From: a virus
Direction: 5' to 3' (one strand)
UHGV virus genome: UHGV-0073881
Length of the DNA stretch: 64,000 nt
A program made the translations under genes and the position numbers. The notes beneath the pieces are model-generated. The model worked only from the letters and a program-made list of their open reading frames with translations. It did not search any database and had not been told where the DNA came from. Position 1 is the stretch's first letter. Each line of letters opens with the position of its first letter. Of this stretch, positions 15,836-61,363 are shown one piece after another.

Positions 15836-17044
15836 ATGGCAGTTGGTGAAATTCAAATTAGTGCATTACCTCAAGCCTCTCTACCAATCGGGCTTAGTGA
15901 TATTTTTCACTTGAAGCAGGGTATTGAGGATAAAAGGTGTACACTAGAGCAATTACTTGCTCCACACGCATCTTTAAAGAATAACCCACACGAAGTTACA
16001 AAAAATCAGGTTGGTTTGAGTAGTGTTATTAACGCACTCCAATTAGTTGCTGCTAATAACTTGTCAGATGTTGTTAATGTTCAGGAAGCAAGAGCAAACT
16101 TAGGAATCCTTTCAAGTGACCAAGTTAATGCTCTTATTCAGACTCACATTGATGACAAGAATAACCCTCACAATACTACGAAGGGTCAAGTTGGATTAGG
16201 TAACCTCCAGAACTGGACATACTCCAATTCATACTCTGAAGATGCTGACAAATATGCTACAGCAAGGGCTGTAAACGCACTGTACAGGGCTATTCAGAAT
16301 AGTTACCCGATTGGTTCTATTCACCTGACTGTGAACCCTGCAAACCCCACTACGTACCTTCTTTGTGGGGGTACTTGGGAACTTGTCTCTAAAGGTAGAG
16401 CACTTGTAGGTTATGATACAGATTCCAGACCAGTTGATTCAACATTTGGTAGTCAGAATGTGACATTGAACAGTAACCACTTACCTGCTCACAGCCACTC
16501 AATTTACCTAACTGGTGGTACTCACAAGCATGGTAATAGTGTTTCTGTATCAAGCTTTGACTACGGAACAAGAACTACAAGTGGTTTTGACTATGGCACA
16601 AAGGCTACTAGTGGTTTTGACTATGGAAGCAAATCAACGACTCCATTTGATTATGGAAACAAATCTACGGATTATAGTGGCGACCATACCCATACGATTC
16701 CAGATTTTCCTGCTTATGAATGGAAAAATGCCACCGACAATGGTCGTTACAGAATGGGGATTAACACTAGAGATGGGGTAACAGGCTCATCCGGGAATCA
16801 CGCGCATACAGTCTATATTGGTGCTCATAGCCATTCTGTGTATATCGGTGCTCACAACCACACACTTGATATCGGTGCTCACAACCATACTTTGGCAATT
16901 GGTGCTCACACACATACAGTAACTGTAGACATTGAAGATGCTGACCATACACACTCTGGTACAACTGGTAACACTGGTAGTGGACAAGCTTTTAGTGTGG
17001 AGCAACCTTCCTATGTAGTTTACATCTGGAAGAGAGTAGCTTAA
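15836..17044 (+). CDS. tail fibre protein with His-x-His repeat tip
   Basis: 402 aa; N-terminal repeated KNNPH..TK.QVGL motif; four decapeptide repeats of the form xFDYGxxxTx; C-terminal IGAH-x-H-T repeats (GAHSHSVYIGAHNHTLDIGAHNHTLAIGAHTHT). Confidence 0.65.
   Translation: MAVGEIQISALPQASLPIGLSDIFHLKQGIEDKRCTLEQLLAPHASLKNNPHEVTKNQVGLSSVINALQLVAANNLSDVVNVQEARANLGILSSDQVNALIQTHIDDKNNPHNTTKGQVGLGNLQNWTYSNSYSEDADKYATARAVNALYRAIQNSYPIGSIHLTVNPANPTTYLLCGGTWELVSKGRALVGYDTDSRPVDSTFGSQNVTLNSNHLPAHSHSIYLTGGTHKHGNSVSVSSFDYGTRTTSGFDYGTKATSGFDYGSKSTTPFDYGNKSTDYSGDHTHTIPDFPAYEWKNATDNGRYRMGINTRDGVTGSSGNHAHTVYIGAHSHSVYIGAHNHTLDIGAHNHTLAIGAHTHTVTVDIEDADHTHSGTTGNTGSGQAFSVEQPSYVVYIWKRVA
16550..16925 (+). repeat. 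in-frame tandem repeats in the fibre gene (30-nt FDYG units and 27-nt GAH-x-H units)
   Basis: near-identical nucleotide units repeated about 4 times each, visible directly in the sequence. Confidence 0.7.
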
Positions 17045-17090
17045 TTATTTTTAAGGGGGCTGTAAAGCCCTCTATTAAGAGGATTGATAA

Positions 17091-19439
17091 ATGGCTGAAT
17101 ACAAACTAAGTGAACTAAACAGTATTGATACAGTTCGCTCAGACGACCTATTACATTTGAGAGTTATTAAAAGACCTGAAATGTTAGGTGACGAAGACCG
17201 TAAAATTACTTACGCAAATTTTCTAGCCTCATTTAGACTTGAAAGATTCCTGCAATTATCTGGTGGAACTATGACAGGTAATTTGGGAATTGTGAAGTTA
17301 ACTTACGGTGGAAAAGATTTATTTGACCCTACAAATTCTTCTGAAATTTCTATTGGGGATACTGCAAAGACTTTTAAAGTTAATGCAAATGGTCTTGCTT
17401 TAAAAGTTGCCGATGCAACAAGAACTGCATTTGTTTATCACACTCTGAATAAACCAAGCCCAGCAGATTTGGGTATGAGAACAAATGCTGAAAATGATGC
17501 AAGATATGCTATTAAGAATGCAGATAACACCTTTGCAGCTAGGCAGATTGTTAATATCAACGGTGCTGGTATTACCCTGAAAAGTATCTTCCCAGATGCT
17601 GGAGCATATTTTGAAGCAAGAGACTCTAACAATGCTTTGAGATTTACTGTAGGTAACTTGGATGCAAGTTCAGATGTTACTTTAGTAAATAGCAAGGGTG
17701 CTAAGTTGACTCTTGGGACAAACGCTGTTAGTGTTGATAAGGATTTTGCAATTACTGGTCAAGTATTACCAAGTGATTTGTCTAACTTCGATGCAAGATA
17801 CTACACTCAGAATGCTGCTGACCAGAGATTTGCAAGACTGACTGCAAATAACACCTTCTCAGGTACTAACAATTTCACAAACTATCAGACAATCACTTCT
17901 GATGGGGCTTTGCTGAGATTGAAGCCAGCTACAGCAAATGGTGCAGTGTTTGTTCAAGCTTATGCAGGTTCTGGCTCAGAGTCTTGGTATCTTGGTCAAC
18001 CTGACGGGACTAAGCAGGATGTTAACTTGTTTAACCAGATGACAGGTGCAACTATGAGACTCTCTACAGAGTTCTTCTTCAGTAAAGCACTAAACGTTAC
18101 TGGACAGGTTAAGCCAAGTGACTACAACAACTTTGACTCAAGATACCTGCCAGCTTCTTTAGGTAGCACACTTGCTAGGACTAACTCTGCAAATACTTTT
18201 AATGGTATTCAGACTATCCTATCTGATGAAACTCCGCTTCTACTGAAGAATAATACACTTAATGCACCATTGTATATTTCAGGGATTAATGCAAACAACA
18301 TTAGAAGATGGTATCTTGGTAATGGAGACCGTTACAATCCAGAATCCCTATTTTTGTCTAATGACACAACAGGTGCAGCGATTGTATTAAGTAACACCAT
18401 TAATATGACTAAGACCATTAATGTTACTGGTCAGGTTCAACCAAGTGATTTGTCTAACTTTGATGCAAGATACTTCTTAAAAGGTTATTTCATTGGTCAA
18501 TCAGTTATGACAAGAACGGTCAATGCTCTTGACAAACCAAACACTTTTGACATTAACTACGCAGGGTTTGTGAGAGCAAATGGTATGATTGATGGGTTAG
18601 GCTCTTTAGCTATTCATGTTCCACACTCTGCTGGTTGTGAGCATGGTAGAGGCATTAGTTTTGACTATGGAAGTGTGGGTTCGGGTCTTGGTCTAGGCAC
18701 ATATGCCTATGATGCAAGTGGTAATTACCGTGGTTCAGCAGAAATCTACACAACTGCCAGAAAACCAACAACTGCGGAGTTAGGTGTGTACAGTAAAGCA
18801 GAAACTGACCAGAGAATTGCAACAGCTATCACAAACTCAACAGACCTAAACAAGATTTACCCTGTAGGTATGGTTACACTGTTTGCTTCTAATGTCAACC
18901 CTAACGTAGCCTTTGCAGGAACTACTTGGGCTTACTTGGCAAATGGACAGTTTAGAACTATCCGTATTGCATCGTCAACTGGTGAAGATGTTGGTTCGGT
19001 TGGTGGTTCAGATACTAAGAGTATTGCCGTTGGGCATCTTCCAAACCACACGCACAGTTTCTCAGGTACTGTATCGACATTTGACCACGGAACAATTGGT
19101 ACTTCACTAAACGGTTGGCATGGTCACTCTGTGAGTGGCTCTACTGCTGCTGCTGGTGCTCACAACCACACATCATTTGCACTTGGTTGGCAGAAGGGAT
19201 GGGGTTTCCCAGCCGGTAACCAGAACATGGGTGAGTATGCAAAACCAACGTCAACTAATGGTGAACACGCTCACTCATTCTCCGGCACTGCTGCTGGCGA
19301 TGGTAACCACACTCACACTGTTCCAGTTGGTGCTCACAACCATACTTTCAGTGGTAACACTGGTGGTACGGGTTCTGGTTCAGCATTTGACGTTACTAAC
19401 GCATTCATTAAATTGATGGCATGGGTTAGAACTGCGTAA
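17091..19439 (+). CDS. long tail fibre protein
   Basis: 782 aa; three ~110-aa internal repeats marked by NVTGQV.PSD.(S/N)NFD(A/S)RY; C-terminus carries H-x-H motifs (GAHNHT, GEHAHSF, GNHTHTV) and ends like the 402-aa fibre. Confidence 0.7.
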   Translation: MAEYKLSELNSIDTVRSDDLLHLRVIKRPEMLGDEDRKITYANFLASFRLERFLQLSGGTMTGNLGIVKLTYGGKDLFDPTNSSEISIGDTAKTFKVNANGLALKVADATRTAFVYHTLNKPSPADLGMRTNAENDARYAIKNADNTFAARQIVNINGAGITLKSIFPDAGAYFEARDSNNALRFTVGNLDASSDVTLVNSKGAKLTLGTNAVSVDKDFAITGQVLPSDLSNFDARYYTQNAADQRFARLTANNTFSGTNNFTNYQTITSDGALLRLKPATANGAVFVQAYAGSGSESWYLGQPDGTKQDVNLFNQMTGATMRLSTEFFFSKALNVTGQVKPSDYNNFDSRYLPASLGSTLARTNSANTFNGIQTILSDETPLLLKNNTLNAPLYISGINANNIRRWYLGNGDRYNPESLFLSNDTTGAAIVLSNTINMTKTINVTGQVQPSDLSNFDARYFLKGYFIGQSVMTRTVNALDKPNTFDINYAGFVRANGMIDGLGSLAIHVPHSAGCEHGRGISFDYGSVGSGLGLGTYAYDASGNYRGSAEIYTTARKPTTAELGVYSKAETDQRIATAITNSTDLNKIYPVGMVTLFASNVNPNVAFAGTTWAYLANGQFRTIRIASSTGEDVGSVGGSDTKSIAVGHLPNHTHSFSGTVSTFDHGTIGTSLNGWHGHSVSGSTAAAGAHNHTSFALGWQKGWGFPAGNQNMGEYAKPTSTNGEHAHSFSGTAAGDGNHTHTVPVGAHNHTFSGNTGGTGSGSAFDVTNAFIKLMAWVRTA

Positions 19440-19525: not shown

Positions 19526-19720
19526 ATGCCAACTATCCTAGCAATCCTCTTAAAAAACCTTGGGGCATTCTTCTGGAAGCTTGCACTTTCTCTTCTAAGT
19601 GAATACATGATTGAAAAAGCATTCTTCAGACTTGCAAGATACCTTGCGAGTAAGACTGATACGCCTATCGACGATGAATTTGTAGATAACTTGGAAAAAG
19701 CTTTTAAAGGTGAGAAATAA
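19526..19720 (+). CDS. small membrane protein (holin-like candidate)
   Basis: 64 aa with one hydrophobic helix and a charged C-terminus; located after the fibre genes. Confidence 0.35.
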   Translation: MPTILAILLKNLGAFFWKLALSLLSEYMIEKAFFRLARYLASKTDTPIDDEFVDNLEKAFKGEK

Positions 19721-20094
19721 TGAAGTGGTTAGAAGATGCTTTCAAGAATAATATCGGTGCAATTGTTGTAGGTATTTTCAGTGTAATTGGGATGTACACT
19801 ACAATGCAGGTCTCTGACGGAAAGCAAGAAGTTTCTATCAACACAAAGTTACAACAGTTGGATAGTTACTCAAAAGGTAACTATTCATCTATTCGTGATT
19901 TGCAGTCTGATATGAGACTTCTTCAGTTAGGTATGGAGAACCAGAAGGTACAGCTAGAGAACGTTAAGGGGGAAAACGCTAAGTTGACCAAAACCCTTGA
20001 TAAATTCTCAGATAGTGTGAACAACTTAGCACAGTCTGTATCAGCTTTACAAGCAATTACCGAACAAAATACACAAAGCACTAAGAAAAAATAA
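19720..20094 (+). CDS. membrane-anchored coiled-coil protein
   Basis: 124 aa; N-terminal TM segment IGAIVVGIFSVIGMY followed by a heptad-like Q/L-rich region; ATGA overlap with upstream ORF. Confidence 0.35.
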   Translation: MKWLEDAFKNNIGAIVVGIFSVIGMYTTMQVSDGKQEVSINTKLQQLDSYSKGNYSSIRDLQSDMRLLQLGMENQKVQLENVKGENAKLTKTLDKFSDSVNNLAQSVSALQAITEQNTQSTKKK

Positions 20095-23214: not shown

Positions 23215-23514
23215 CTAATCTACCTTACTTAAGTTGAAGTTTAAGCCAAGTTTATCACAAACACTAATCATGTAGTCAAGAGATACTTTCCCACTACCAT
23301 TCAGGATGTTTGAGACTCTGGCTTGAGATATTTCACAAATCTTTGCTACCTGAATCTGTGAAAGGTTGTTTCTTTTCATGTGTATGTTTAACTTTTTAGA
23401 GATGTAAAACTTCATCTCATCAACATCCATTCCTGCTATATAAGCTTCCATTTCGGCCTCTCTATCTGCCTCCCAATCATCTTGAGGTGCATAAGGGTCA
23501 AAGATACTATTCAT
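23215..23514 (-). CDS. helix-turn-helix DNA-binding protein (XRE-like)
   Basis: 99 aa; C-terminal half matches an HTH pattern (LSQIQVAKICEISQARVSNILNG). Confidence 0.55.
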   Translation of the reverse strand: MNSIFDPYAPQDDWEADREAEMEAYIAGMDVDEMKFYISKKLNIHMKRNNLSQIQVAKICEISQARVSNILNGSGKVSLDYMISVCDKLGLNFNLSKVD

Positions 23515-23710
23515 CTTTCTTTCTCCGTTTACGAGAAGTGTCGATTAACGAATCAAGGTTAGTAGCTCTAACTTGTTCACGAGTACCATTGATGTAGTTA
23601 TCAAGGGACTCTACAACAGTGTTGAAGTCTTTAGCCCAAACTCTGTAAATAACTACGCCGTCATCGTCAATAACTTCACCATAGTCTACTCTACAGATAT
23701 TCTTCTTCAT
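23507..23710 (-). CDS. hypothetical protein
   Basis: 67-aa ORF coupled to neighbours. Confidence 0.4.
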   Translation of the reverse strand: MKKNICRVDYGEVIDDDGVVIYRVWAKDFNTVVESLDNYINGTREQVRATNLDSLIDTSRKRRKKDE

Positions 23711-24087
23711 TGTGGAAGACCCATGCAGTGACGGTTAATGATAAAGTGTTCAACACCGTCTAAAGCACCCTGAGAAACGTGCTCTTTCACAACTTCAATT
23801 TCAGTAATCTGCTCAGGGTTAAGAACGTCAATGTTTTCTGTAACCATCATATCAGAAACATCAAGGTAGTACTGCCCCATTGTGTGGTAATTGAAATCAA
23901 TTATCTTGTCAGTTAATTCAGAAACAGTGTCTTGAGAAATCGGCTTTGTCAATTCTCCAGCTTTAGAAACAACCTTTTGAGCAACCTGACAAGCTTCTAC
24001 TCTGACGTTGTTGTAATCAATCTTTGGCATATCTGCATAAGCATTGAAGCTTAGTGCGGCAAAGATACATAGTACAATCTTTTTCAT
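23707..24087 (-). CDS. secreted/periplasmic hypothetical protein
   Basis: 126 aa with N-terminal signal peptide MKKIVLCIFAALSFNAYA (A-x-A cleavage-like site). Confidence 0.5.
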   Translation of the reverse strand: MKKIVLCIFAALSFNAYADMPKIDYNNVRVEACQVAQKVVSKAGELTKPISQDTVSELTDKIIDFNYHTMGQYYLDVSDMMVTENIDVLNPEQITEIEVVKEHVSQGALDGVEHFIINRHCMGLPQ

Positions 24088-24179
24088 AACTTACTCCTAT
24101 ATAATATTTTGTATACCTACGAGTATAAAAATAAGCTATAACACCTGACTTGTCAACAGATTTTATAGCTTATTTGGCA

Positions 24180-24450
24180 GATTTTTTATAAAGCTACTGC
24201 CATCCTTCCATACCTTACCACACAAGACCAAACCATGCCGTACTCCACTTCACAGGACCAAGCATCACTTAAAAATCCTCTTAGAAGACTCTTAAGTGAT
24301 GCAATCGAATTTTAATGTAGCTCCGATTAACTACCCATACCTGACCGAACCTTACCGAGCCTTACCAGACACTACAGAACAGGACCGCACCGCACCTCAT
24401 TAAAAGACCCTCTTTAAAGACCTTTTAATAAGGAGCCTCCGAAGAGGCTA
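24180..24450. repeat. non-coding modular repeat region A
   Basis: no ORF of 60 aa or more; + strand strongly G-poor; shares modules with region B: 11-bp inverted repeat 24262-24302, covarying hairpin 24303-24340, box 24393-24430, short direct repeats CCTTACC and ACCGC; hairpin AGCCTC-CGAA-GAGGCT at 24431-24446. Confidence 0.6.
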
Positions 24451-24460
24451 CCTAGTCAAC

Positions 24461-24901
24461 TTAGAAGGGTTTTCTACGTTGCTTGTTAATATTAGCTTTC
24501 ATAGCAGCTAAGTGGTTTTGCTGTTCAATCAGTCGTGAACGTTCTTGATGGCTAAGTGTCATAGTGTTCACATTCTCAATTGCTTGAGTGGCTTGTTTTA
24601 AAGCACGACCAATCTTACCAGACATTTTACGTTTTGCAATAGTTGCTTGATGTTTTGGCTCAACTACTCGATAACCGACACCCATTGAAGCAACCAGATA
24701 AATCTTCTCTTCTTTAAGAAGCTTCTCAATAAACTTCTCAAGTCGATTTAGGCGTGTAAGTGCGTAAGCCTTCATTTCATCTTCGTACTTAACAATGTCA
24801 CCTTGATAAGTTGGCTTCACAATACCTAAGAAGGTGTCCATCTCAGAATGTGATACGGTGTCACCGTAACTAAACTTTGCTGCTAATGCTTTTGTATTCA
24901 T
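24461..24901 (-). CDS. hypothetical protein (cassette gene 2)
   Basis: 146 aa with basic C-terminus; flanked by the repeat regions. Confidence 0.5.
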   Translation of the reverse strand: MNTKALAAKFSYGDTVSHSEMDTFLGIVKPTYQGDIVKYEDEMKAYALTRLNRLEKFIEKLLKEEKIYLVASMGVGYRVVEPKHQATIAKRKMSGKIGRALKQATQAIENVNTMTLSHQERSRLIEQQNHLAAMKANINKQRRKPF

Positions 24902-24903
24902 AA

Positions 24904-25509
<606 letters not shown>

Positions 25510-25559
25510 TTAGTTGATTGTTAAGTTGTTTGTAAAGAACCCTCAACAGAAGACTCTTT

Positions 25560-25840
25560 AGAAACTTGGTAGATTTTTAACGTGGCTACTACCATCCACC
25601 CATATCATACCAAACCTGACCAAATCTTACCGCACCCAACATCGCCTAACCTTACCACACCTCATTAAAAGACCCTGTTTAAAGACCTTTTAAAAAGGTA
25701 AGTCTCATTTTAATGTAGCTGAGACTAACTACCCATACTAAACCTCACCGCACCTCACCGAGCCGCGCATTACCAAACCAGACCAAACCTTGCCTCACAT
25801 CACTTAAAAATCCTCTTAGAAGACTCTTAAGTGATGCTGG
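25560..25840. repeat. non-coding modular repeat region B
   Basis: G-poor + strand; same modules as region A in a different order: box 25658-25698, covarying hairpin 25701-25740, inverted repeat 25798-25837, direct repeats CCTCACCG and ACCAAACC. Confidence 0.6.
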
Positions 25841-25900
25841 TGAGTACCCGTTGGTTTATGCTGCTTAGTATACTCACCAAATTTTCTAGGTCAACAACTT

Positions 25901-27004
25901 TTATTCATAGTCTCGAATAACTAACCCAACAGGGAACTGTAAAGACCCCTTGCGAGTCATCTTCTGGAACTGAACCGTTAAAGGTTTCCCGATAAACTCT
26001 TCAGGGTGTTCAGCAAGATACTGTTTCTTCTCATGGGTAGTTTTCCATGAAACATCTACAAAGACATTTGGAAGTGTCTCTACAACAAACTTACCATGAC
26101 CCCGCTTATCGGTCTTCACACCAGTAATTTTAAACTCCTCTGTGTGCATCTTCTTATGTTTAATCAGGAAGTATGAACGGTGACCACACTCATAGAAGGA
26201 CTCTGGAGAGATTGAGCGGTACATTGCACCTTCAAACTTAGCTTCAACCCACTTATCATGAGCTTCATCAAACTCTTCCCAAGAATTTACACGACGAGAT
26301 TTAACAGGGACAACTCTACAGCCATCTCTAAAGTCATTCAATGGTGAAGTCTCAATAATACTTCTACGCTCAGGCCATGTCTTAGTGCTGTCACAGATAT
26401 CATACCAGTAAAACTTGAGTAAATGTCGGTCAGGATTGTCTTCATTTTTAATCATGGAGACAATATCTTCTAAGTCCAACCCATGAGCATAGATTTCACC
26501 ATCAAATTCATCAACGTCTTTATGGAGCCTCAACATTGCCATAATGTCAGGTATTAGCTCAGTAGGAATTTTATAAATAGTGTTCTCACGAGAATATGCT
26601 GTAAATACACTGCCAATACTTAAGTGTCTTGAAATCCTACAACGTACACCATCCAGTTTTGGTTGAGCATCAGCAGGAAATTTCAGATACTTTGCATGAC
26701 TAACCTTTGCAGCATCATGAGCAAGCTGTACACCTACCTTCTCAGTATTCTGTGCAGACTCTTTTGTGTAAGCGTAACCTTTACGGTCTACTTGTTTCTT
26801 GTACTTAGCAGAAACTTCAAAGAGAGCTTGCTGTTCAGCATTACGCTCATTCTTTTTACCGATGTTCTTAGGCTCTGCTGTGTACTCTTCAAACATCATC
26901 TTGCCATTTTCTTTACCGTAGGTTGTAACCACCTTATCACCTACAGCAACACACGACCAAACGTTAAAAGAGCCATCTTTATTTTGTTTGTACAGAATTG
27001 TCAT
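25901..27004 (-). CDS. ATP-dependent DNA ligase
   Basis: 367 aa with adenylation motif KxDGxR (PKLDGVRC) and a ligase-like downstream region. Confidence 0.85.
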   Translation of the reverse strand: MTILYKQNKDGSFNVWSCVAVGDKVVTTYGKENGKMMFEEYTAEPKNIGKKNERNAEQQALFEVSAKYKKQVDRKGYAYTKESAQNTEKVGVQLAHDAAKVSHAKYLKFPADAQPKLDGVRCRISRHLSIGSVFTAYSRENTIYKIPTELIPDIMAMLRLHKDVDEFDGEIYAHGLDLEDIVSMIKNEDNPDRHLLKFYWYDICDSTKTWPERRSIIETSPLNDFRDGCRVVPVKSRRVNSWEEFDEAHDKWVEAKFEGAMYRSISPESFYECGHRSYFLIKHKKMHTEEFKITGVKTDKRGHGKFVVETLPNVFVDVSWKTTHEKKQYLAEHPEEFIGKPLTVQFQKMTRKGSLQFPVGLVIRDYE

Positions 27005-27207
27005 TTTCTCTTACCACCAATCTCTACGTCGATAACTTGAGTGTCTCCACAAACATCAAACTTGTGAATGACATTTTCTACAGTGTAAGTCCAACCATCA
27101 ATCCTTACCCACTCACCTTCTCGTGGTACGATAGGGTTACGTTGGGCAACTGTAGTAGTTGAGTGTATAACGTCATATAGGTGAATAAAGTTTACCAGTA
27201 CTTGCAT
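27001..27207 (-). CDS. hypothetical protein
   Basis: track ORF 27001..27258 overlaps the upstream lipoprotein gene by 50 nt; internal Met at 27207 starts right after that stop codon. Confidence 0.4.
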   Translation of the reverse strand: MQVLVNFIHLYDVIHSTTTVAQRNPIVPREGEWVRIDGWTYTVENVIHKFDVCGDTQVIDVEIGGKRK

Positions 27208-27208
27208 C

Positions 27209-27454
27209 TTAATATCCTTCGTCAATAACGGTGATGTGTTGAGTGCTTGACTTACCATACCTGTAAGAAGTTGTTGTCTGTGAATTTGGGCAACGGACTA
27301 CTATTAAGTCATATTTAAATGTTGACCAATTAAGTTTGTATATTGAACAATCTCTCATCTCTGGAGGTAACTCATAGCTACTGTCTTGTTTGTCATAACT
27401 TGGGTTACAGCCAGTTAGAAAAAGCACTCCAAGTGCAATGATTGTTTTCCACAT
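27209..27454 (-). CDS. small lipoprotein
   Basis: 81 aa; signal peptide plus lipobox-like LTGC (MWKTIIALGVLFLTGC); three further Cys. Confidence 0.55.
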   Translation of the reverse strand: MWKTIIALGVLFLTGCNPSYDKQDSSYELPPEMRDCSIYKLNWSTFKYDLIVVRCPNSQTTTSYRYGKSSTQHITVIDEGY

Positions 27455-27675
27455 AGTTGATTTCCTTTTTCACAGTTTTCTTCGTAACCTTCTTGGACGG
27501 TCTTGTAAAGTTCCTTGAAAGTTTCTTCTTTCACTGGCTCTACAGACTTTGTTTTACACAAGTCCAAGTACCATTGATAGTCTAACCCACGACACCATGC
27601 TTCAGACACAAAAGAAATCTGAGGGTTTATGTTTCGGATTATTGCTAAACCAGCTTCTTCTTTACTGCTCATCAA
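27415..27675 (-). CDS. hypothetical protein
   Basis: 86-aa ORF with several cysteines. Confidence 0.4.
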   Translation of the reverse strand: MMSSKEEAGLAIIRNINPQISFVSEAWCRGLDYQWYLDLCKTKSVEPVKEETFKELYKTVQEGYEENCEKGNQLCGKQSLHLECFF

Positions 27676-27801
27676 ACTTAACCTCTCTAAAAGTTCTTAA
27701 GTAATATAGTTTGTAGTAAACTATTTCGCAACTACGAACGTTTGTTTTCAAAAGGTTCCAATCAAAACCTTCACCCATACTTCCCCAGATGCTGTAGAGC
27801 T

Positions 27802-28005
27802 TCACTGTAAAATGCTCCATCCAGTTTTCTGCCAATCACACCCACGATACCATGTAGCCATTGGGTAACCCATTTCACAGACAATCTTCCCATCTTTCAT
27901 TTCGAAGAACTCATCAGATGTGAAATTTTCATTACGTACTTTGTGACCACTCTTCATGGCTTCAATAGCTTCTTCATAAGTCATTTTGATTTCTCCAATA
28001 CTCAA
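27802..28005 (-). CDS. hypothetical small phage protein
   Basis: 67-aa ORF; pattern EAIEAMKSGHKVR resembles a small protein family common in phages (from memory, unverified). Confidence 0.4.
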   Translation of the reverse strand: MSIGEIKMTYEEAIEAMKSGHKVRNENFTSDEFFEMKDGKIVCEMGYPMATWYRGCDWQKTGWSILQ

Positions 28006-28214
28006 AAGTTAATGTCAATGCGTTCACCCTTAAGGACTCCAGTGTGGTCTTTTGCAATCTTACCATCAACAATAAGGATATGTGCAAACCTTAAAGAGTC
28101 ACGATTAAAACCTTTTACGAACTTACTAGGCATCACTACAATAAGCATCTCCTGAATCAACTCTGGAGTATAGCAATTGTCGTGAAGTTGTTGGATAACG
28201 TCTGAAAGTGTCAT
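28002..28214 (-). CDS. hypothetical protein
   Basis: 70-aa ORF coupled to upstream ORF. Confidence 0.4.
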   Translation of the reverse strand: MTLSDVIQQLHDNCYTPELIQEMLIVVMPSKFVKGFNRDSLRFAHILIVDGKIAKDHTGVLKGERIDINF

Positions 28215-28265
28215 AAATCCTCCTATACAAGATATAGTATAAGGTACTCTTCCATGAGCACCTTG

Positions 28266-28778
28266 TCAACTTAGTTTTGCAAACTCTCCGTGGAGTTTCA
28301 TAGCAGCTTCACAGTAAGCTTCATGGGCTTCTTCAGGGGTGTCATACATCCCAAGATGATAATTCTTACCTTGTAAACGAATCATTGCCCTAAACCTTTT
28401 CCCTATCTTCTGTACACCTTTTGGTAAACCTGATATGGACTTTCTAGACCGATTGCAAGAGTTTTGTGAAGCCGTACAAACCCTCAAATTCAAATACCTA
28501 TTATCCCAACCATCACAATTCTTGTGGTCAACCTGTAAGGTTTTATCAGGTAGGTATCCATCCATATACAAGATAACTAAACGATTTGCTTGGTAACTCC
28601 TTCCATCAATCAGCAATTGGACAGACTTGTGACCATCAGTGTTTGTTCTGTAGTTTCCAGCCCTCTTACCTCCAAATCTAGAGTTAAAGTTTGCATTACC
28701 TTCTCTAAATTTCCAAGTAAAGACCCCTGTATCGGGGTCGTACTCTAAAAGCTCCTTTAAACGAATTTCTGTAATCAT
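28266..28778 (-). CDS. HNH homing endonuclease with AP2-like DNA-binding domain
   Basis: HNH motif (VDHKNCDGWDNRYLNLRVCTASQN) plus AP2-like C-terminus (GVQKIGKRFRAMIRLQGKNYHLGMYDTPEEAHEAY); paralogue of the ORF at 38356; start chosen at internal Met aligning with that paralogue (track start 28817 overlaps the polymerase). Confidence 0.65.
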   Translation of the reverse strand: MITEIRLKELLEYDPDTGVFTWKFREGNANFNSRFGGKRAGNYRTNTDGHKSVQLLIDGRSYQANRLVILYMDGYLPDKTLQVDHKNCDGWDNRYLNLRVCTASQNSCNRSRKSISGLPKGVQKIGKRFRAMIRLQGKNYHLGMYDTPEEAHEAYCEAAMKLHGEFAKLS

Positions 28779-28788
28779 TTCAACACCA

Positions 28789-31494
28789 TCAATGTACTTC
28801 CAACCAGCTCTTACCAACCTTACCAGTACCTGTAACCATAGTTTCTTTTCTTAGACCAAGGTTTTTAGAAGCCTGCCCGTACATCCAGTCAGTGATAGCT
28901 TTAACCTCTTGAGTCATACTTTCTGGACATTCCCAACTATTTTCATCGTGATATGCCAGAAGAAGTCTAGCTCCAATAGCTGGCTTACGTCCATTCAGCT
29001 TCATCAACCCTTCATCATAGGCTCTACGACATGCAAGGTTAATTGCTTCATTCTGTACTTGACTTTCTGAACCCATCAAAAGGTAATTTAACAGCTTGTG
29101 TGGAGACTTACACCATAACCAAGCTCCAGCAACCTTTACAAAACCCCCTTTAGAGATTGCAGCAGTCTTACCAAAGACCTCTTCAAGAGCCTTCTTAGTC
29201 GCTTTAAAGTCAGCTTCTAAGTTATCAATCAGTTTCTTAATCTTCGGCAAACGAACGAAGTAAGTCTGTTTAGTCAATGCACCCTCCTGAGTAGTTGCTG
29301 CTTTAATGGTCTTAGCAAACTTCTCATCCCCTGCACCAAACAGCAGTGCATAGATGCCATTCTTAGCTTTCTTACGACCTTTACTGATTTCGTGAAGAAG
29401 ATTTTCATCCTGAGTCATACGACAAGTCAAGATATCCTGCTCATCATTCAAGCTGAAGTAGATACTGTTCAGTGTGTGAGCATCAGTGCCTGAGTAAACT
29501 ACGTACAAGTCGTTTTCAGAGTCATAACGCAGATACTTGTCAACCTCTGGATTCAGGTATTCGTCAAAGTGTTTGCAGTAGTAGCGACCATCTTCTTGAC
29601 GAACAAATTCAATCTCTTCTTTACCTTCGGTTACCGCTTTGGTGAACTCTTTATCACCCATAAAGTTACACAGTAAAACAAGCTGTGCAGAGTTCATATC
29701 CACAGAGACTACGTTGGTTCCCTTCTCACAAATCCAAACTGCCCTCATTGGTTCACCATAAACAGCAGCACCGGAAGGTACGTTTACAATACCATACTGT
29801 GTCATACGTCCAGTGGATGTACCAAACACCATTGCACCAGCACTTAAACGACCATCTGGACGAATCTGATTCAACCAACCTTTCTCATCATCCTTTGAGT
29901 TCTCAATAGTTCTGCGTCGGTGCATCAAAGTATAGTACTTCGCAATCTTCTGCCCAAGTTCACCTTCGATAGTGTCATAAGAAGATTCAGTCAGTTTTGG
30001 TGAAGTACGAATCAAGCAAGGTTCAAGAACATCTGTGTATTTCTTCACAGACCAATTATGCTCGATGTACTGTACCCCTTCATGCTCAACGTAGTTTAAA
30101 CCACAACGTTCAACCATTTCATCCCACTTAGGATGTTTACGAATCATCTTCTTATTATCTTTGAAGCGACAAACCTTAACAGGACGACCATCTGAGTCTT
30201 TCTTGTAGTTCCAATCATCAGGAATCCAACCAACAGATTTCAGATACTCTTTAACTACTGCAACCTGAGTCATGCGTGAAACTTCAAACTCAATCGGTGT
30301 ATATGGTGCATCAATCAAACCCGTGTAACGACTTGACTCAAGTTCAAAGTGATTAACAACATGATTGTTGTAGTACTTGACAATCTTAACAGTTTTAACT
30401 GGCTTCCAATCTTTGCACTTCTTGTCAACCTTCGCATTTAGCTCATTACATACTGCACGAGCATCTTTCATTGCCACGAAACCTTCTTTGTACTCTTCTC
30501 CGGTTACCGTGTTAGTTGGTGTGTAGCAGTTACGTTTCTCTACGCTGAAAATCTTGGTAGTTGGTTTACCAAATGGCTTAATAGGATAACTTTGCATTTC
30601 CCCATTACGAACCTGCTGACGATACTTTGTCTTAGGATACTTGGTAATACGTTTCAAACCATCTGCTTCACCAAAAGTTTCAACATACTCATTCCAAGCT
30701 TTTGCAAATTCTTCACCAGTAACTTTCCCTTTTGTCTTGATAGTTGGTGGTAAGAATGGCTCAACCTCTGAAGCAAGGTCAGCAGTCATCTTATCAAGTT
30801 CTTTAACACAACTCTTCATCATGTTAATGTCAGCTTTCCAACCATTGATAGCTTGCTGGCTCATCCAGAAAGATGTTTCTTTAGCTCGCATGTAGGTTTC
30901 GTAGGTATCCACACCACACTTCTTCAGCTTCACATACTCATTATCAAGAGCACGTTTAGTTTTGGCGTTGATTCGAATATCTTCAACAACACGAGTTAAG
31001 ATTTCAGCGTTCCAAACTCCCCACTCTTCAATCTCAGGCTTACGGACACCAACACGAGCACCCCATGCAGCCAAACCATGAGAACCCTTGTAACCTTTCG
31101 GTGTAGGTCTATCCATCCACTGAACACGAGATTGGATAAGTGAATCTTGGAAGAAATTACTCCAAGGCTTACATTTAGGGTTATCAAAGTTCCACAGGTC
31201 AGGTGCAATGTGGTTGAACACCCACCAGTCATAACCAAGACCGTTGTGAATGCAAAGACGTTTCGCCTTTAAAGCAAACTCAACACCCTCTCTTAAGCCA
31301 CCCTTGATATACTTGGTGTACTTGTGACCAAGAATAGGCTCATCAGTGAATACCCACACAGGTGGTTCATCACTGTCATCTTTGTAATCTGCAAAAGCCA
31401 TTACGTGAGCTTTAGTGAACTCAAGCAGCAATCCGTCAGTTTCTGTATCGCCTACCAGATGCAAATTTTTAAAGTCTACGTTTTCCATTTTCAC
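28789..31494 (-). CDS. DNA polymerase, family A, with 3'-5' exonuclease domain
   Basis: 901 aa; Exo I-like DTETDGL; motif B-like KNGIYALLFGAG; motif C HDE (LAYHDENSWE). Confidence 0.9.
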   Translation of the reverse strand: MKMENVDFKNLHLVGDTETDGLLLEFTKAHVMAFADYKDDSDEPPVWVFTDEPILGHKYTKYIKGGLREGVEFALKAKRLCIHNGLGYDWWVFNHIAPDLWNFDNPKCKPWSNFFQDSLIQSRVQWMDRPTPKGYKGSHGLAAWGARVGVRKPEIEEWGVWNAEILTRVVEDIRINAKTKRALDNEYVKLKKCGVDTYETYMRAKETSFWMSQQAINGWKADINMMKSCVKELDKMTADLASEVEPFLPPTIKTKGKVTGEEFAKAWNEYVETFGEADGLKRITKYPKTKYRQQVRNGEMQSYPIKPFGKPTTKIFSVEKRNCYTPTNTVTGEEYKEGFVAMKDARAVCNELNAKVDKKCKDWKPVKTVKIVKYYNNHVVNHFELESSRYTGLIDAPYTPIEFEVSRMTQVAVVKEYLKSVGWIPDDWNYKKDSDGRPVKVCRFKDNKKMIRKHPKWDEMVERCGLNYVEHEGVQYIEHNWSVKKYTDVLEPCLIRTSPKLTESSYDTIEGELGQKIAKYYTLMHRRRTIENSKDDEKGWLNQIRPDGRLSAGAMVFGTSTGRMTQYGIVNVPSGAAVYGEPMRAVWICEKGTNVVSVDMNSAQLVLLCNFMGDKEFTKAVTEGKEEIEFVRQEDGRYYCKHFDEYLNPEVDKYLRYDSENDLYVVYSGTDAHTLNSIYFSLNDEQDILTCRMTQDENLLHEISKGRKKAKNGIYALLFGAGDEKFAKTIKAATTQEGALTKQTYFVRLPKIKKLIDNLEADFKATKKALEEVFGKTAAISKGGFVKVAGAWLWCKSPHKLLNYLLMGSESQVQNEAINLACRRAYDEGLMKLNGRKPAIGARLLLAYHDENSWECPESMTQEVKAITDWMYGQASKNLGLRKETMVTGTGKVGKSWLEVH

Positions 31495-31744
31495 TCCCTC
31501 TCAAACATATGACTCCATACCTTACTGCAAAACGACACAAAAAGCAAGTTGACAAATAACTTGACAGGGTGTTAGTCTTGTATGCAGTGGGTTTTAACTT
31601 AAAAGACTCCCTTTACAGATTAACTATACAGATTCTTTAAAACCCTTAAAAGATTTTAATAGCTTTTAAAAAGCTTTAAAGTATTACGTATAGAATACGT
31701 AAAGAAAGAGATTAAGACTTAATAGAAACTATAAAGAGGCTGCC
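31495..31744. promoter_or_regulatory. divergent intergenic control region
   Basis: 250-bp AT-rich gap between the - strand polymerase gene and + strand genes; tandem TTGACA hexamers at 31549 and 31561; perfect inverted repeat TACGTAT-aga-ATACGTA at 31686-31702. Confidence 0.4.
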
Positions 31745-32167
31745 ATGCAGAGAATGTTTGTTCACCCTGACGTAGCAAATTTCCTAAAAGCTTTGGAGAA
31801 GTTAGAAGAACTTGACATAGCTGCTCAGAAGGAATATGCTTACCATCATCGTCGAATGGTTGATGTTCAACACGAAATAGAACTTTCAGAAGGTTACGAC
31901 GAAGATTTGAAATGCTCTGTTTTCGAGCATATGAAAGAGATTGCTTCTGATAGGCGTAAAGCAAAAGATACATGTTTTTTGATAGATGCCTTAAAAAAGA
32001 AGTTGCAAAGTGGAACAGACTTGTGTAGTCTAGCAACACTTCTTCAGGATGTTGAGAGTTCTTGGGACAGACATTACTTCCCAAGGTCTGAAAAGACACT
32101 TGACTTCTCTTCACCGGAAGGATTAAAATTATCACGACTTACATTAAACAAAATGAGAGAGAAATAA
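31745..32167 (+). CDS. hypothetical protein
   Basis: 140-aa ORF; + strand chosen over the overlapping antisense ORF 31719..32135 because it is co-oriented and coupled with downstream genes. Confidence 0.45.
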   Translation: MQRMFVHPDVANFLKALEKLEELDIAAQKEYAYHHRRMVDVQHEIELSEGYDEDLKCSVFEHMKEIASDRRKAKDTCFLIDALKKKLQSGTDLCSLATLLQDVESSWDRHYFPRSEKTLDFSSPEGLKLSRLTLNKMREK

Positions 32168-32168
32168 T

Positions 32169-32969
32169 ATGAAAACTGTAAATGAAATGCTGGCAGAAAA
32201 GAACATCAACGAACAATTCCTGTTAACTACTGTGGAAAGCCTTGCTGTAATTTTCCGTAGCAATACGTTCACTCGTGGCTTTATGCCAGAATCACTTCAA
32301 GTTACAGATATTGACAGTGACGAATCTTTCCGCTCAACTGTAGAGTTACTTACCAGCAATCGTAAAATTGCTCTGACCTCTATCGTTGTTGGTGTTGACT
32401 CTCTGGCTAAATTCCTGTTTGAGAACATGCAGAGTGGTGATTACTCTAGCATGGATGAGCAAAGCATTAATATGCTGCTTAATGAGATGACTGAACAGCA
32501 AATGGTCATGGGTATTGTTGGTGGAGTATCAAGTGTCATGGCTATGCTGGAAAAGCGTATGGAAGATAAATCTTCACGCTATGACAAACTTGATTGGGGT
32601 TTCAATGTAATCTCTGAACGTGCTAAAGCGCTGGCTATTGAAACTTACCAGAAACTGGAAGACTTGACTAAACAGGACGCAGATATTAAGCTTGACGACA
32701 TTCAGGTTATGGTTACTGCTCTGACACCTGCAATCATGACTATCATGAATATTCACGCAATTCTTGAAGTTGCAGATTTGCTGAAGTCTCCACCTTCTTT
32801 CATTGAAGAAATCAGTGGTGGTGCAAGTGCATCTGCTTTGCAAGATGTTCTTATGCAGACCAACGTAGCAATTGTACGTGAGAAGATTGCCATTAACTTT
32901 GGCGATGAATTTTTGCAGCAGATTGAAGCAATGGCTGAAAAGAACGGTGAAGATATTACAATTCACTAA
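32169..32969 (+). CDS. hypothetical protein
   Basis: 266-aa ORF followed by a terminator. Confidence 0.5.
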   Translation: MKTVNEMLAEKNINEQFLLTTVESLAVIFRSNTFTRGFMPESLQVTDIDSDESFRSTVELLTSNRKIALTSIVVGVDSLAKFLFENMQSGDYSSMDEQSINMLLNEMTEQQMVMGIVGGVSSVMAMLEKRMEDKSSRYDKLDWGFNVISERAKALAIETYQKLEDLTKQDADIKLDDIQVMVTALTPAIMTIMNIHAILEVADLLKSPPSFIEEISGGASASALQDVLMQTNVAIVREKIAINFGDEFLQQIEAMAEKNGEDITIH

Positions 32970-58974: not shown

Positions 58975-59859
58975 ATGAAGCCAATGTTCAAATATCTTGG
59001 TGGTAAAACAAGAATACTAAGAGAGTATGAGCGTTTAAATGTTTTTCCAAGCCACTGTAAAAACTTCTATGATTTGTTTTCAGGTGGAGGTTCAGTCGCT
59101 ATTTGGGCTTATAACAGATACCCAGAAGCAAAAATATTTATTAATGAGATAAACAAACACATTATAGGTCTTTACACAACTTTCAGAAATGACTATGAAA
59201 ACTTCATGGAAGAATTTGAGTGCTTGTCAAAGAGGTACTTAGCATTACCTATGCAGGAAGAATATGCTGTGAAAGGTCAGCGACATAAACGTTTACGCTA
59301 TAAAATGTATTACAGTGTAAGGGAGGAACTCCTTTCACTTGGTGAAACAGGTATATATGACTATAGGTACTATGCAAGACAATTTTTCCTTCAAAAACTA
59401 AGTTTTGGTGGTGTATGGCAGACCACTAAAGAAATGAAAGGTCACTACGCAACACCTTGTGGGTATTTGCTGGAAGAAGAGATTTTCTTTACAAAAACTA
59501 AAGAGTCACTATCCGAGTTCTACAGTTTTATCACCGATAAAAGGGTGATACTAAGTAGTGAGCCTTATGATATGGTTGACATAAAACATGGAGAAGGTAC
59601 AGTTATTTACTGTGACCCCCCATATATCAACACCAACCAGAAATATGGTGCAAAGTTTGACATTGAAATGTCTGTAAAACTATGTGAAAATATGATTTCT
59701 TGGGGAGAGTTAGGTTCTAAAGTTTTGATGTCAAACTCTCAGTGGGATGGATGGACAAACTTAATCCCTGAAAATTTTAACTTGACAGAGGTTAGCCATT
59801 CATACACAATACATGCACAGAGAAGCAAGGGTGTTAGCGAAGTAATTATTCATAACTAA
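58975..59859 (+). CDS. dam: DNA N6-adenine methyltransferase (Dam family)
   Basis: 294 aa; SAM-binding FxGxG (FYDLFSGGGS) and catalytic DPPY (VIYCDPPYI). Confidence 0.8.
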   Translation: MKPMFKYLGGKTRILREYERLNVFPSHCKNFYDLFSGGGSVAIWAYNRYPEAKIFINEINKHIIGLYTTFRNDYENFMEEFECLSKRYLALPMQEEYAVKGQRHKRLRYKMYYSVREELLSLGETGIYDYRYYARQFFLQKLSFGGVWQTTKEMKGHYATPCGYLLEEEIFFTKTKESLSEFYSFITDKRVILSSEPYDMVDIKHGEGTVIYCDPPYINTNQKYGAKFDIEMSVKLCENMISWGELGSKVLMSNSQWDGWTNLIPENFNLTEVSHSYTIHAQRSKGVSEVIIHN

Positions 59860-60852: not shown

Positions 60853-61200
60853 ATGACATTCAAAGAATTTTGTCAAGCAGCTTTTGTAATCATGTTTTTG
60901 TTAGGTGTAGGTGCTTGGGGTGGCTATACTTACAAGACTAGCCAAGTTAACGAGAAAGAGTTGACTAATCAGAAGCTTGTTAGTGTTGCTAAGGATGCTT
61001 ACCAAGAAGGTTTAGCAAATCTTAGCGCTAATTACAAAAATGATTTGAAAGATGTGCTTGCTAAAAACAAACACACAAAAGAGGTATTGACCTATGAAAA
61101 AACTAAGACAGAGTTTTATAATATTTGTGCTACTGAGCCTTATGTCAGGGTGTTCAACCTACAAAGTGAACAATACCTTCAAAAACTCCCAAGTAAGTGA
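60853..61200 (+). CDS. i-spanin-like protein (inner-membrane anchored)
   Basis: 115 aa; N-terminal TM helix AAFVIMFLLGVGAWGG, then charged coiled-coil-like periplasmic domain; its 3' end contains the start of an out-of-frame lipoprotein ORF. Confidence 0.45.
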   Translation: MTFKEFCQAAFVIMFLLGVGAWGGYTYKTSQVNEKELTNQKLVSVAKDAYQEGLANLSANYKNDLKDVLAKNKHTKEVLTYEKTKTEFYNICATEPYVRVFNLQSEQYLQKLPSK

Positions 61201-61363
61201 GAGTGACAAGTACACTCAGGAAGAGACTAGGTACACTGTCAAGGGTACTAAAGGTGAAGACCTTGCTAGTGCTATGGAGTTTTACCGTGATGGATTCTAT
61301 GAATGTACTATCAAGGCAAACAATTTGATTGATATGATTTTGTTAGGGAATAAGCAGCAATGA
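61094..61363 (+). CDS. o-spanin-like lipoprotein
   Basis: 89 aa; signal peptide with lipobox-like LMSGC; start embedded in the upstream gene in another frame with GAGG 9 nt upstream (Rz/Rz1-type overlap). Confidence 0.45.
   Translation: MKKLRQSFIIFVLLSLMSGCSTYKVNNTFKNSQVSESDKYTQEETRYTVKGTKGEDLASAMEFYRDGFYECTIKANNLIDMILLGNKQQ

Follow-up and report, generated by a model that had tools for sequence, protein, structure and literature searches.

A small lipoprotein of the PHROG 902 family in the replication block of a Felix O1-like phage, and its possible action at the host envelope

Background

What would a small lipoprotein gene be doing among the replication genes of a virulent phage? The question is raised by an open reading frame (ORF) at positions 27209..27454, on the minus strand, of a 64,000-nucleotide stretch of the virus genome UHGV-0073881. 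This whole stretch, referred to below as the window, is that of a Felix O1-like virulent myophage of the Ounavirinae. A first reading of the sequence (the original prediction) had seen in the ORF a candidate factor for superinfection exclusion or receptor masking, by analogy with the lipoprotein Llp of phage T5. The analysis presented here indicates that the ORF is very probably a genuine lipoprotein gene of the PHROG 902/DUF4884 family, and that it is one more member of a catalogued, functionally blank family. As to its role, our leading guess, a tentative one, is that the protein may bind a conserved component of the host envelope from the periplasmic side and thereby exclude later phages at an entry step; the receptor-blocking analogy with T5 Llp is disfavoured.

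The lipoprotein gene and its product

The ORF occupies exactly the interval first assigned to it and comprises 81 codons followed by a TAA stop, which is counted in the coordinates. A ribosome-binding site, AAGGA, can be read directly from the sequence at 27463..27467 (minus strand), 8 nucleotides 5' of the ATG. The 81-residue product reads MWKTIIALGVLFLTGC followed by NPSYDKQDSSYELPPEMRDCSIYKLNWSTFKYDLIVVRCPNSQTTTSYRYGKSSTQHITVIDEGY. Its first 15 residues, MWKTIIALGVLFLTG (27410..27454, minus strand), form a signal peptide in which a basic residue, K3, precedes the hydrophobic core, and an equivalent N-terminus is present in every family member. The lipobox, L-T-G-C, occupies residues 13-16 (27407..27418, minus strand), and the mature protein is predicted to start at Cys16, which would bear the lipid.

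Lipoprotein precursors were recognized by a basic n-region, a hydrophobic h-region and a lipobox of the form [LVI][ASTVI][GAS]C within approximately the first 25 residues. The N-terminus of the ORF product (K3, then TIIALGVLF, then L-T-G-C16, with a hydrophobic core of 10 residues) is of this signal peptidase II type, and the strict lipobox recurs in 235 of the 248 collected relatives, the remainder being F/M/Y-G-C variants or N-terminally miscalled or fused ORFs. The signal peptide and LTGC lipobox of the original prediction are thus borne out, whereas its count of three additional cysteines is not: the protein has three in all, namely the lipobox cysteine and two others at positions 36 and 55. 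Residue +2 is Asn17, so the protein carries no Asp+2 retention signal. In E. coli, Asp at position +2 retains a lipoprotein in the inner membrane, and other residues at this position lead to the outer membrane; by this rule the window protein should go to the outer membrane.

Among the ORFs of at least 40 codons in all six frames of the 64-kb window, only two match the pattern of signal peptide plus lipobox, the present one and the o-spanin candidate at 61094..61363. Since the pattern is so sparingly matched, and since hundreds of phages keep the ORF, with ratios of nonsynonymous to synonymous substitution (dN/dS) of 0.12-0.29, its lipoprotein character goes beyond what chance would produce.

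Family membership and distribution

The protein belongs to PHROG 902, a family of unknown function (phrog_902, E 5.2e-16, 60 bits, residues 1-76), and a profile built from its relatives picks out this ORF alone in the window (E 3e-32). Membership of the Pfam family DUF4884 is probable. A precomputed tag, PF16225 (DUF4884), without the mark "weak", is attached to all of the homologues found (13 + 124 + 374). We grade this membership only as probable because a local run of hmmscan did not reproduce the tag: with the local Pfam-A copy and E<=10, PF16225 was reported neither for the query nor for ten relatives. Scans of the query and its relatives against Pfam, NCBIfam and PADLOC gave nothing significant, the sub-threshold matches being confined to Zn_ribbon_InsA and to TrbK_RP4, the latter over the signal peptide. 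Our search of the literature found no paper on the function of DUF4884, of PHROG 902 or of any member.

The family is large. Relatives of the lipoprotein were detected by tblastn in 590 phage records, including about 230 Ounavirinae and 295 Vibrio phages of approximately 114 kb. The one such vibriophage examined, D332, has a T5-like genome organization and carries its family member in the replication region; in the right half of its genome no second, Llp-like lipoprotein gene was seen beside that of the receptor-binding protein. Other carriers are Certrevirus and Vequintavirinae-like phages (PBES 02, 4MG), jumbo phages (Asteriusvirus G17, Eneladusvirus), Acinetobacter phage ME3 and Aeromonas phage PAc. 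Searched with a profile, 1.84 billion representative proteins yielded 1,328 clusters (50% identity) at E<=1e-3, of which 758 reached E<=1e-10. The same core motif is found in phages that infect Escherichia, Salmonella, Citrobacter, Vibrio, Aeromonas, Acinetobacter, Erwinia and Cronobacter.

The family is confined to phages and is almost absent from bacterial genomes and plasmids. No match to the lipoprotein gene was found in E. coli genomes at the DNA level, and plasmids gave two partial matches, both from Acinetobacter. A scan of 185,579 bacterial species, one genome per species, with the single exact motif VVRCPNSxT[TS] returned one locus, in an island of Hylemonella gracilis. Neither this locus nor the plasmid matches offered an informative cellular context.

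The lipobox, the two further cysteines and the VVRCPNS...GK motif are common to the window protein and the rest of the family. Within the Ounavirinae, the allele shared by the window and Shigella phage Henu11 is divergent (60-74% identity to the others) and has a C-terminal extension of three residues where its relatives have a stop codon.

In two of the jumbo-phage genomes, G17 (locus L006, 3617..3892) and ME3 (locus L007, 3357..4083), more small ORFs for lipoproteins or membrane-anchored proteins come after the family member; they show a similar C..Y...(V/Y)xCP(N/G) pattern and may be diverged paralogues in small arrays. In the record of phage bumzen (locus L010, 4501..4743) the lipoprotein ORF is unannotated, and an ORF in a different frame, bumzen_45, covers the site.

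Conserved anatomy and predicted fold

Examination of an alignment of 140 sequences shows where the conservation lies. Cys16, Cys36 and Cys55 are invariant (140/140), and exactly two cysteines beyond the lipobox occur in 210 of the 235 members with the strict lipobox. Residues P30, L33, D35, V52, V53, R54, P56, N57, S58, G67 and K68 are near-invariant. The family motif, (V/I)V(R/Y)CPN(S/A)xTxT...GK, together with two cysteines after that of the lipobox, is present in full in the window protein. Its centre is the near-invariant signature V-V-R-C-P-N-S, residues 52-58 (27281..27301, minus strand), on which the bacterial-genome search pattern was based. The most variable regions are the stretch that follows the lipobox (residues 17-28) and a loop of residues 40-51 (27302..27337, minus strand), the latter being the most variable part of the folded domain: its column entropies are mostly 3.0-3.7 bits (2.1 at residue 41 and 1.7 at residue 50), compared to less than 1 bit in the core motif, and it also varies among Ounavirinae alleles. 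Residue +2 differs across the family as well (D in 60, E in 55, S in 27, N in 26 and T in 24 of 235).

The mature protein comprises 66 residues (27212..27409, minus strand). AlphaFold2, supplied with the mature part and 140 sequences, predicts a short N-terminal segment and four antiparallel strands, i.e., a tether of about 20 residues leading into a four-stranded beta-meander (mean predicted local distance difference test score, pLDDT, 70.7; predicted template modelling score, pTM, 0.50). An earlier model of the full precursor from 68 sequences was poor (pLDDT 61), and a Foldseek comparison against the PDB gave no match at E<1. In the model of the mature part, the variable residues 40-51 would form the hairpin loop between strands 1 and 2, and the conserved G67-K68 pair (27251..27256, minus strand; G in 131/138, K in 138/140) would form the turn between strands 3 and 4. 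The codon for Cys36 (27347..27349, minus strand) falls just before modelled strand 1 and that for Cys55 (27290..27292, minus strand) just after modelled strand 2, a placement that would suit a disulfide stapling the first hairpin; we therefore infer a Cys36-Cys55 disulfide from the model.

No specific fold match was found for the modelled domain. The fold search of BFVD returned only other phage "lipoproteins", and sequence searches of the PDB, run with the protein by itself and with a profile of 68 sequences, gave only matches at the level of the signal peptide or of chance.

Selection and allele history

The lipoprotein is 60-64% identical to its counterparts in five other Ounavirinae, compared to 89-94% for the polymerase, 88-92% for the ligase and about 84% for the adjacent 68-residue ORF in four of the five (53% in Michonne). 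Its dN/dS of 0.12-0.29 argues that the gene is constrained by purifying selection. Synonymous divergence (dS) is saturated, at 1.3-2.2 versus about 0.6 for the ligase, which points to an old, exchanged allele and not to a burst of positive selection. The segment from a 70-residue ORF to the 68-residue ORF (~27001..28214), which includes the lipoprotein, shares 96-100% protein identity with Henu11, as opposed to 89% for the ligase and 56-70% for the tail fibres. This indicates that the cassette of small genes was exchanged recently. Such mosaicism is ordinary in phages.

Lipoprotein alleles are uncoupled from tail-fibre alleles among the six to seven genomes that were compared. Between the window and Henu11 the lipoproteins are 96% identical, whereas the long fibres share 56% (48% in the C-terminal 300 residues) and the short fibres 70% (51% in the C-terminal 200 residues). 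The long fibre of the window is closest to that of Michonne (74%), whose lipoprotein is 63% identical. Phages bumzen and VpaE1, for their part, have lipoproteins that are 97% identical and fibres that are 73% and 79% identical. The best match to the fibre tip in the whole phage collection is that of Citrobacter phage HP1 (90%), with a lipoprotein at most 80% identical; Henu11 is the only phage whose lipoprotein exceeds 80% identity to that of the window.

The C-terminal ends of the alleles also differ. Those of the window and Henu11 end in ...VIDEGY (27209..27220, minus strand), and most Felixounavirus alleles stop three codons sooner (...VIE*). As GF or GY can still be read past the stop in the latter, the difference between stop and sense codons made or removed a short C-terminal tail.

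Genomic setting and time of expression

The 3 kb around the ORF have matches in 259 phage records, the best being Shigella phage Henu11 (Mooglevirus) with 92% nucleotide identity. The gene lies in a same-strand block in the order DNA polymerase (28789..31494), HNH/AP2 endonuclease, three small ORFs, lipoprotein, 68-residue ORF (27001..27207) and ATP-dependent ligase (25901..27004); in relatives the polymerase-to-ligase block runs on to the genes for dihydrofolate reductase and thymidylate synthase. Packing is tight, as judged from the start of the lipoprotein ORF, which overlaps the 3' end of the upstream 85-residue ORF by 40 nucleotides, and from the ATG of the 68-residue ORF, one base past the lipoprotein stop. 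The tail fibres are encoded some 8 kb off, on the other strand (15836..19439). Of the lysis-type genes, a putative holin homologue (19720..20094) comes closest to the lipoprotein gene, at a distance of about 7 kb, and the spanin pair lies at 60853..61363; the gene is thus far from lysis functions, as the original prediction had stated. No conserved partner gene was found beside the family members of six distant carrier phages, so the lipoprotein probably acts alone or on a host partner.

The original prediction had also placed the gene among early genes between ligase and polymerase. The position and the common strand hold, and the label "early" is reasonable but unproven. The homologue in Felix O1 is ORF91 (85 residues, 59421..59678), part of the transcription unit of "genes 96-80". 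By reverse transcription PCR (RT-PCR), transcripts of Felix O1 ORFs 89, 90, 93 and 96 were maximal at 25 min ("middle") and that of ORF95 at 5 min (PMC3185647). These flanking ORFs are thus transcribed early to middle, and "early-to-middle replication block" is the safer description. A promoter and terminator scan of 23500..32500 gave counts that were not above the shuffled expectation.

A possible periplasmic binder acting at the entry step

The reading that we tentatively favour would run as follows. The precursor would be exported by Sec, lipidated at Cys16 and cleaved by signal peptidase II, as in the standard lipoprotein pathway. A flexible tether of about 20 residues would hold the beta-meander of about 45 residues in the periplasm, stapled by the putative Cys36-Cys55 disulfide. 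The invariant RCPNS/GK surface, judging from its conservation, may bind a host envelope component that is itself conserved in both Gamma- and Betaproteobacteria; the variable hairpin loop would either tune this binding or be free. The lipoprotein would in this way remodel or close the envelope of the infected cell from the periplasmic side, to the benefit of the phage. The most plausible benefit would be that later phages are excluded at the periplasm-crossing or genome-entry step, functionally like the Sp and Imm proteins of phage T4.

A host target is favoured over the phage's own receptor on account of the same core motif in phages of many host genera, the lack of a conserved neighbour and the uncoupling from the fibres. 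That a protein of this size can grip a conserved envelope machine is indicated by Rtp45, a lipoprotein of about 6 kDa of the Cor type found in small siphophages, which binds the essential and conserved outer-membrane machine LptDE from the periplasm (PMC12685063). Like T4 Sp and Imm, the window protein would be a pre-late product of a virulent myophage that acts at the envelope after adsorption and independently of the receptor; the likeness is one of analogy only. Neither Sp nor Imm is known to be a lipoprotein, and the PDB searches yielded no sequence match of the window protein to any solved structure. Imm of T4 binds the tape-measure protein (bioRxiv 10.64898/2026.03.06.709160).

Several points weigh against this interpretation. 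Target and phenotype are purely a matter of deduction, and confidence in the model of the mature part is only moderate (pLDDT 71). The variable +2 residue suggests that many relatives may stay in the inner membrane, such that an outer-membrane location is no property of the family. The RT-PCR set of Felix O1 does not include ORF91 (PMC3185647). Finally, the carriers comprise both myo- and sipho-type phages, and their tail-tip, tape-measure and lysozyme proteins differ. Given such differences among the incoming components, a block aimed at a phage component would fit the conserved core poorly, and a host target would fit it better.

A broader version of the proposal, possible though doubtful in our estimation, is that DUF4884/PHROG 902 forms a pan-phage family of periplasmic effectors, in which a disulfide-stapled lipoprotein scaffold would engage one and the same conserved machine of the envelope throughout, for example LptDE, Bam, Tol-Pal or the machinery of the cell wall. 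The carriers, virulent phages of Proteobacteria that are unrelated to one another, include the Ounavirinae, Vequintavirinae-like phages, T5-like vibriophages and jumbo phages, possibly also T4-like and ICP1-like phages, for which the matches are at the level of fold only. If true, this would amount to an undescribed form of receptor-independent superinfection exclusion or envelope takeover.

Alternative explanations

The main rival to exclusion by an envelope binder is a role in counter-defence or enzyme inhibition, which we consider unlikely. The protein would then be a periplasmic counter-defence or host-takeover factor, unrelated to exclusion, and its target might be a periplasmic enzyme (a lysozyme-like hydrolase, a protease or a nuclease), a sensor of envelope stress or, in a membrane-bound defence system, the part exposed to the periplasm. 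The restriction of the family to virulent phages and its very conserved surface motif would suit such a role, and a target accessible from either membrane would be in keeping with the variable +2 residue. The mosaic block shared with Henu11 also holds an ORF with a sub-threshold match to Tad2, an anti-Thoeris protein. On the other hand, the lipoprotein matches no PADLOC model, although that library consists of defence and not of anti-defence proteins; PDB searches by sequence or by fold reveal no likeness to the known inhibitors of lysozymes or proteases, and no defence system with a known periplasmic step sensitive to lipoproteins is implicated.

Masking of the phage's own receptor, the role suggested by the analogy with T5 Llp, is improbable. 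The lipoprotein would bind the receptor from the periplasm, such that superinfecting phages and released progeny could not adsorb. There is a general resemblance to T5 Llp. Both are small lipoproteins of virulent phages with pre-late expression, a mature part of about 60 residues (the Llp precursor has 77), probably one disulfide and a position facing the periplasm (PMC9586334). Rtp45 likewise contains a disulfide, Cys30-Cys38 (PMC12685063). A location outside the late genes and the outer-membrane anchoring predicted from Asn+2 also agree with masking.

The evidence from sequence comparison and gene location runs the other way. In hhalign profile comparisons the alignment with T5 Llp or Rtp45 is limited to the signal peptide, and the mature domain is homologous to neither. 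Known genes for exclusion lipoproteins adjoin the gene for the receptor-binding protein (PMC9586334, PMC12685063): llp stands head-to-head with oad, and rtp45 adjoins the rtp44-43 locus, whereas the window gene lies between ligase and polymerase. The alleles of the lipoprotein do not follow those of the fibres, as described above.

The nature of the receptor argues in the same direction. Llp is a lytic conversion lipoprotein that blocks FhuA, acting allosterically on a TonB-dependent protein receptor, whereas Felix O1 and its relatives are reported to target lipopolysaccharide (LPS) and no protein receptor (PMC8594841). It is not obvious how LPS could be masked by a protein that faces the periplasm, and complete modification of LPS or other glycans during the lytic cycle has been judged futile (PMC11990801). 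Moreover, the conserved core is common to phages of Vibrio, Acinetobacter, Aeromonas, Erwinia and enteric bacteria, which argues against any one receptor, as these hosts cannot share one. Homology, location, fibre uncoupling, the LPS receptor and host breadth together make own-receptor masking unlikely, and they leave exclusion at a later step unaddressed.

A lysis function, as an o-spanin of the Rz1 type or as a regulator of lysis timing, is very improbable. Like the window protein, o-spanins are small phage lipoproteins with conserved cysteines, and they are sorted to the outer membrane. Their genes, however, are embedded in, overlap or adjoin that of the i-spanin, which the lipoprotein gene does not: it has no adjacent or embedding i-spanin, and its neighbours (85 and 68 residues) are without a transmembrane segment. 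Its place is in the replication unit, with some 7 kb between it and the holin homologue, and vibriophage D332 has its own annotated Rz-like spanin pair besides its family member. The window, too, already has a pair. An i-spanin of 115 residues is encoded at 60853..61200 on the plus strand (phrog_1152, "Rz-like spanin", E 1e-35), and it is overlapped by a probable o-spanin gene at 61094..61363 on the same strand, the product of which is an 89-residue lipoprotein that begins MKKLRQSFIIFVLLSLMSGC followed by S. We therefore rejected an o-spanin identity for the ORF at 27209..27454, the true pair being elsewhere and the neighbours lacking a transmembrane segment. The spanin pair (60853..61363) lies far from the holin homologue (19720..20094).

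That the ORF is dispensable filler or a miscall is scarcely credible: some GenBank records omit it or annotate another frame (bumzen) and it has no known function, but it is under purifying selection, its lipobox and cysteines are invariant across about 1,300 clusters, it has a ribosome-binding site, and it is kept in most Ounavirinae, Felix O1 (ORF91) included.

Implications

With 590 phage records and about 1,300 clusters, the family is a large one; its carriers are phages of Gram-negative bacteria, to which it is confined, and its core is strongly conserved. If its members bind a conserved envelope machine, a receptor-independent mode of exclusion or takeover would be added to the few exclusion factors known (Llp, Cor, Rtp45, Sp and Imm), and the binding site could point to a vulnerable periplasmic position on an essential complex. 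Felix O1-like phages serve in the biocontrol of Salmonella and E. coli and in phage cocktails, where a broad exclusion factor would affect interference between the component phages. If the gene proves dispensable, it would merely be another small accessory gene.

Other features of the window

A gene for a homing endonuclease of the HNH/AP2 type (28266..28817, minus strand) shares 29 nucleotides with the 3' end of the polymerase gene. Its product is 42-48% identical to the endonucleases found at the same site in relatives, and it is absent in VpaE1. Further endonucleases interrupt the polymerase gene of several relatives.

Two genes upstream of the lipoprotein, a 67-residue ORF (27802..28005, minus strand) has the sub-threshold match to PF11195, Tad2-like (Thoeris anti-defence 2), with E 2e-4 and 22.2 bits versus a cutoff of 25; a sequence search of the PDB gave no Tad2 match for it. 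The ORF also matches phrog_3474. Henu11 (100%) and Michonne (85%) possess it, and it was not found in four Felixounavirus genomes. On the other side of the lipoprotein gene, the 68-residue neighbour is labelled "ATP-binding sugar transporter" in the public record of Henu11 (locus L001, 1307..1564), a label for which nothing here provides support.

Beyond the ligase gene, a 126-residue ORF (23707..24087, minus strand) codes for a protein with a signal peptide of the signal peptidase I type, MKKIVLCIFAALSFNAYA followed by D, and matches phrog_4332 (unknown function). With 31-49% identity to its relatives, versus 96-99% for the two adjoining ORFs, it is a second fast-diverging exported protein of the block. 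On the plus strand, a 294-residue ORF (58975..59859) contains motifs of a Dam-like N6-adenine DNA methyltransferase, KYLGGK near the N-terminus and DPPY, which were read by eye from the translation.

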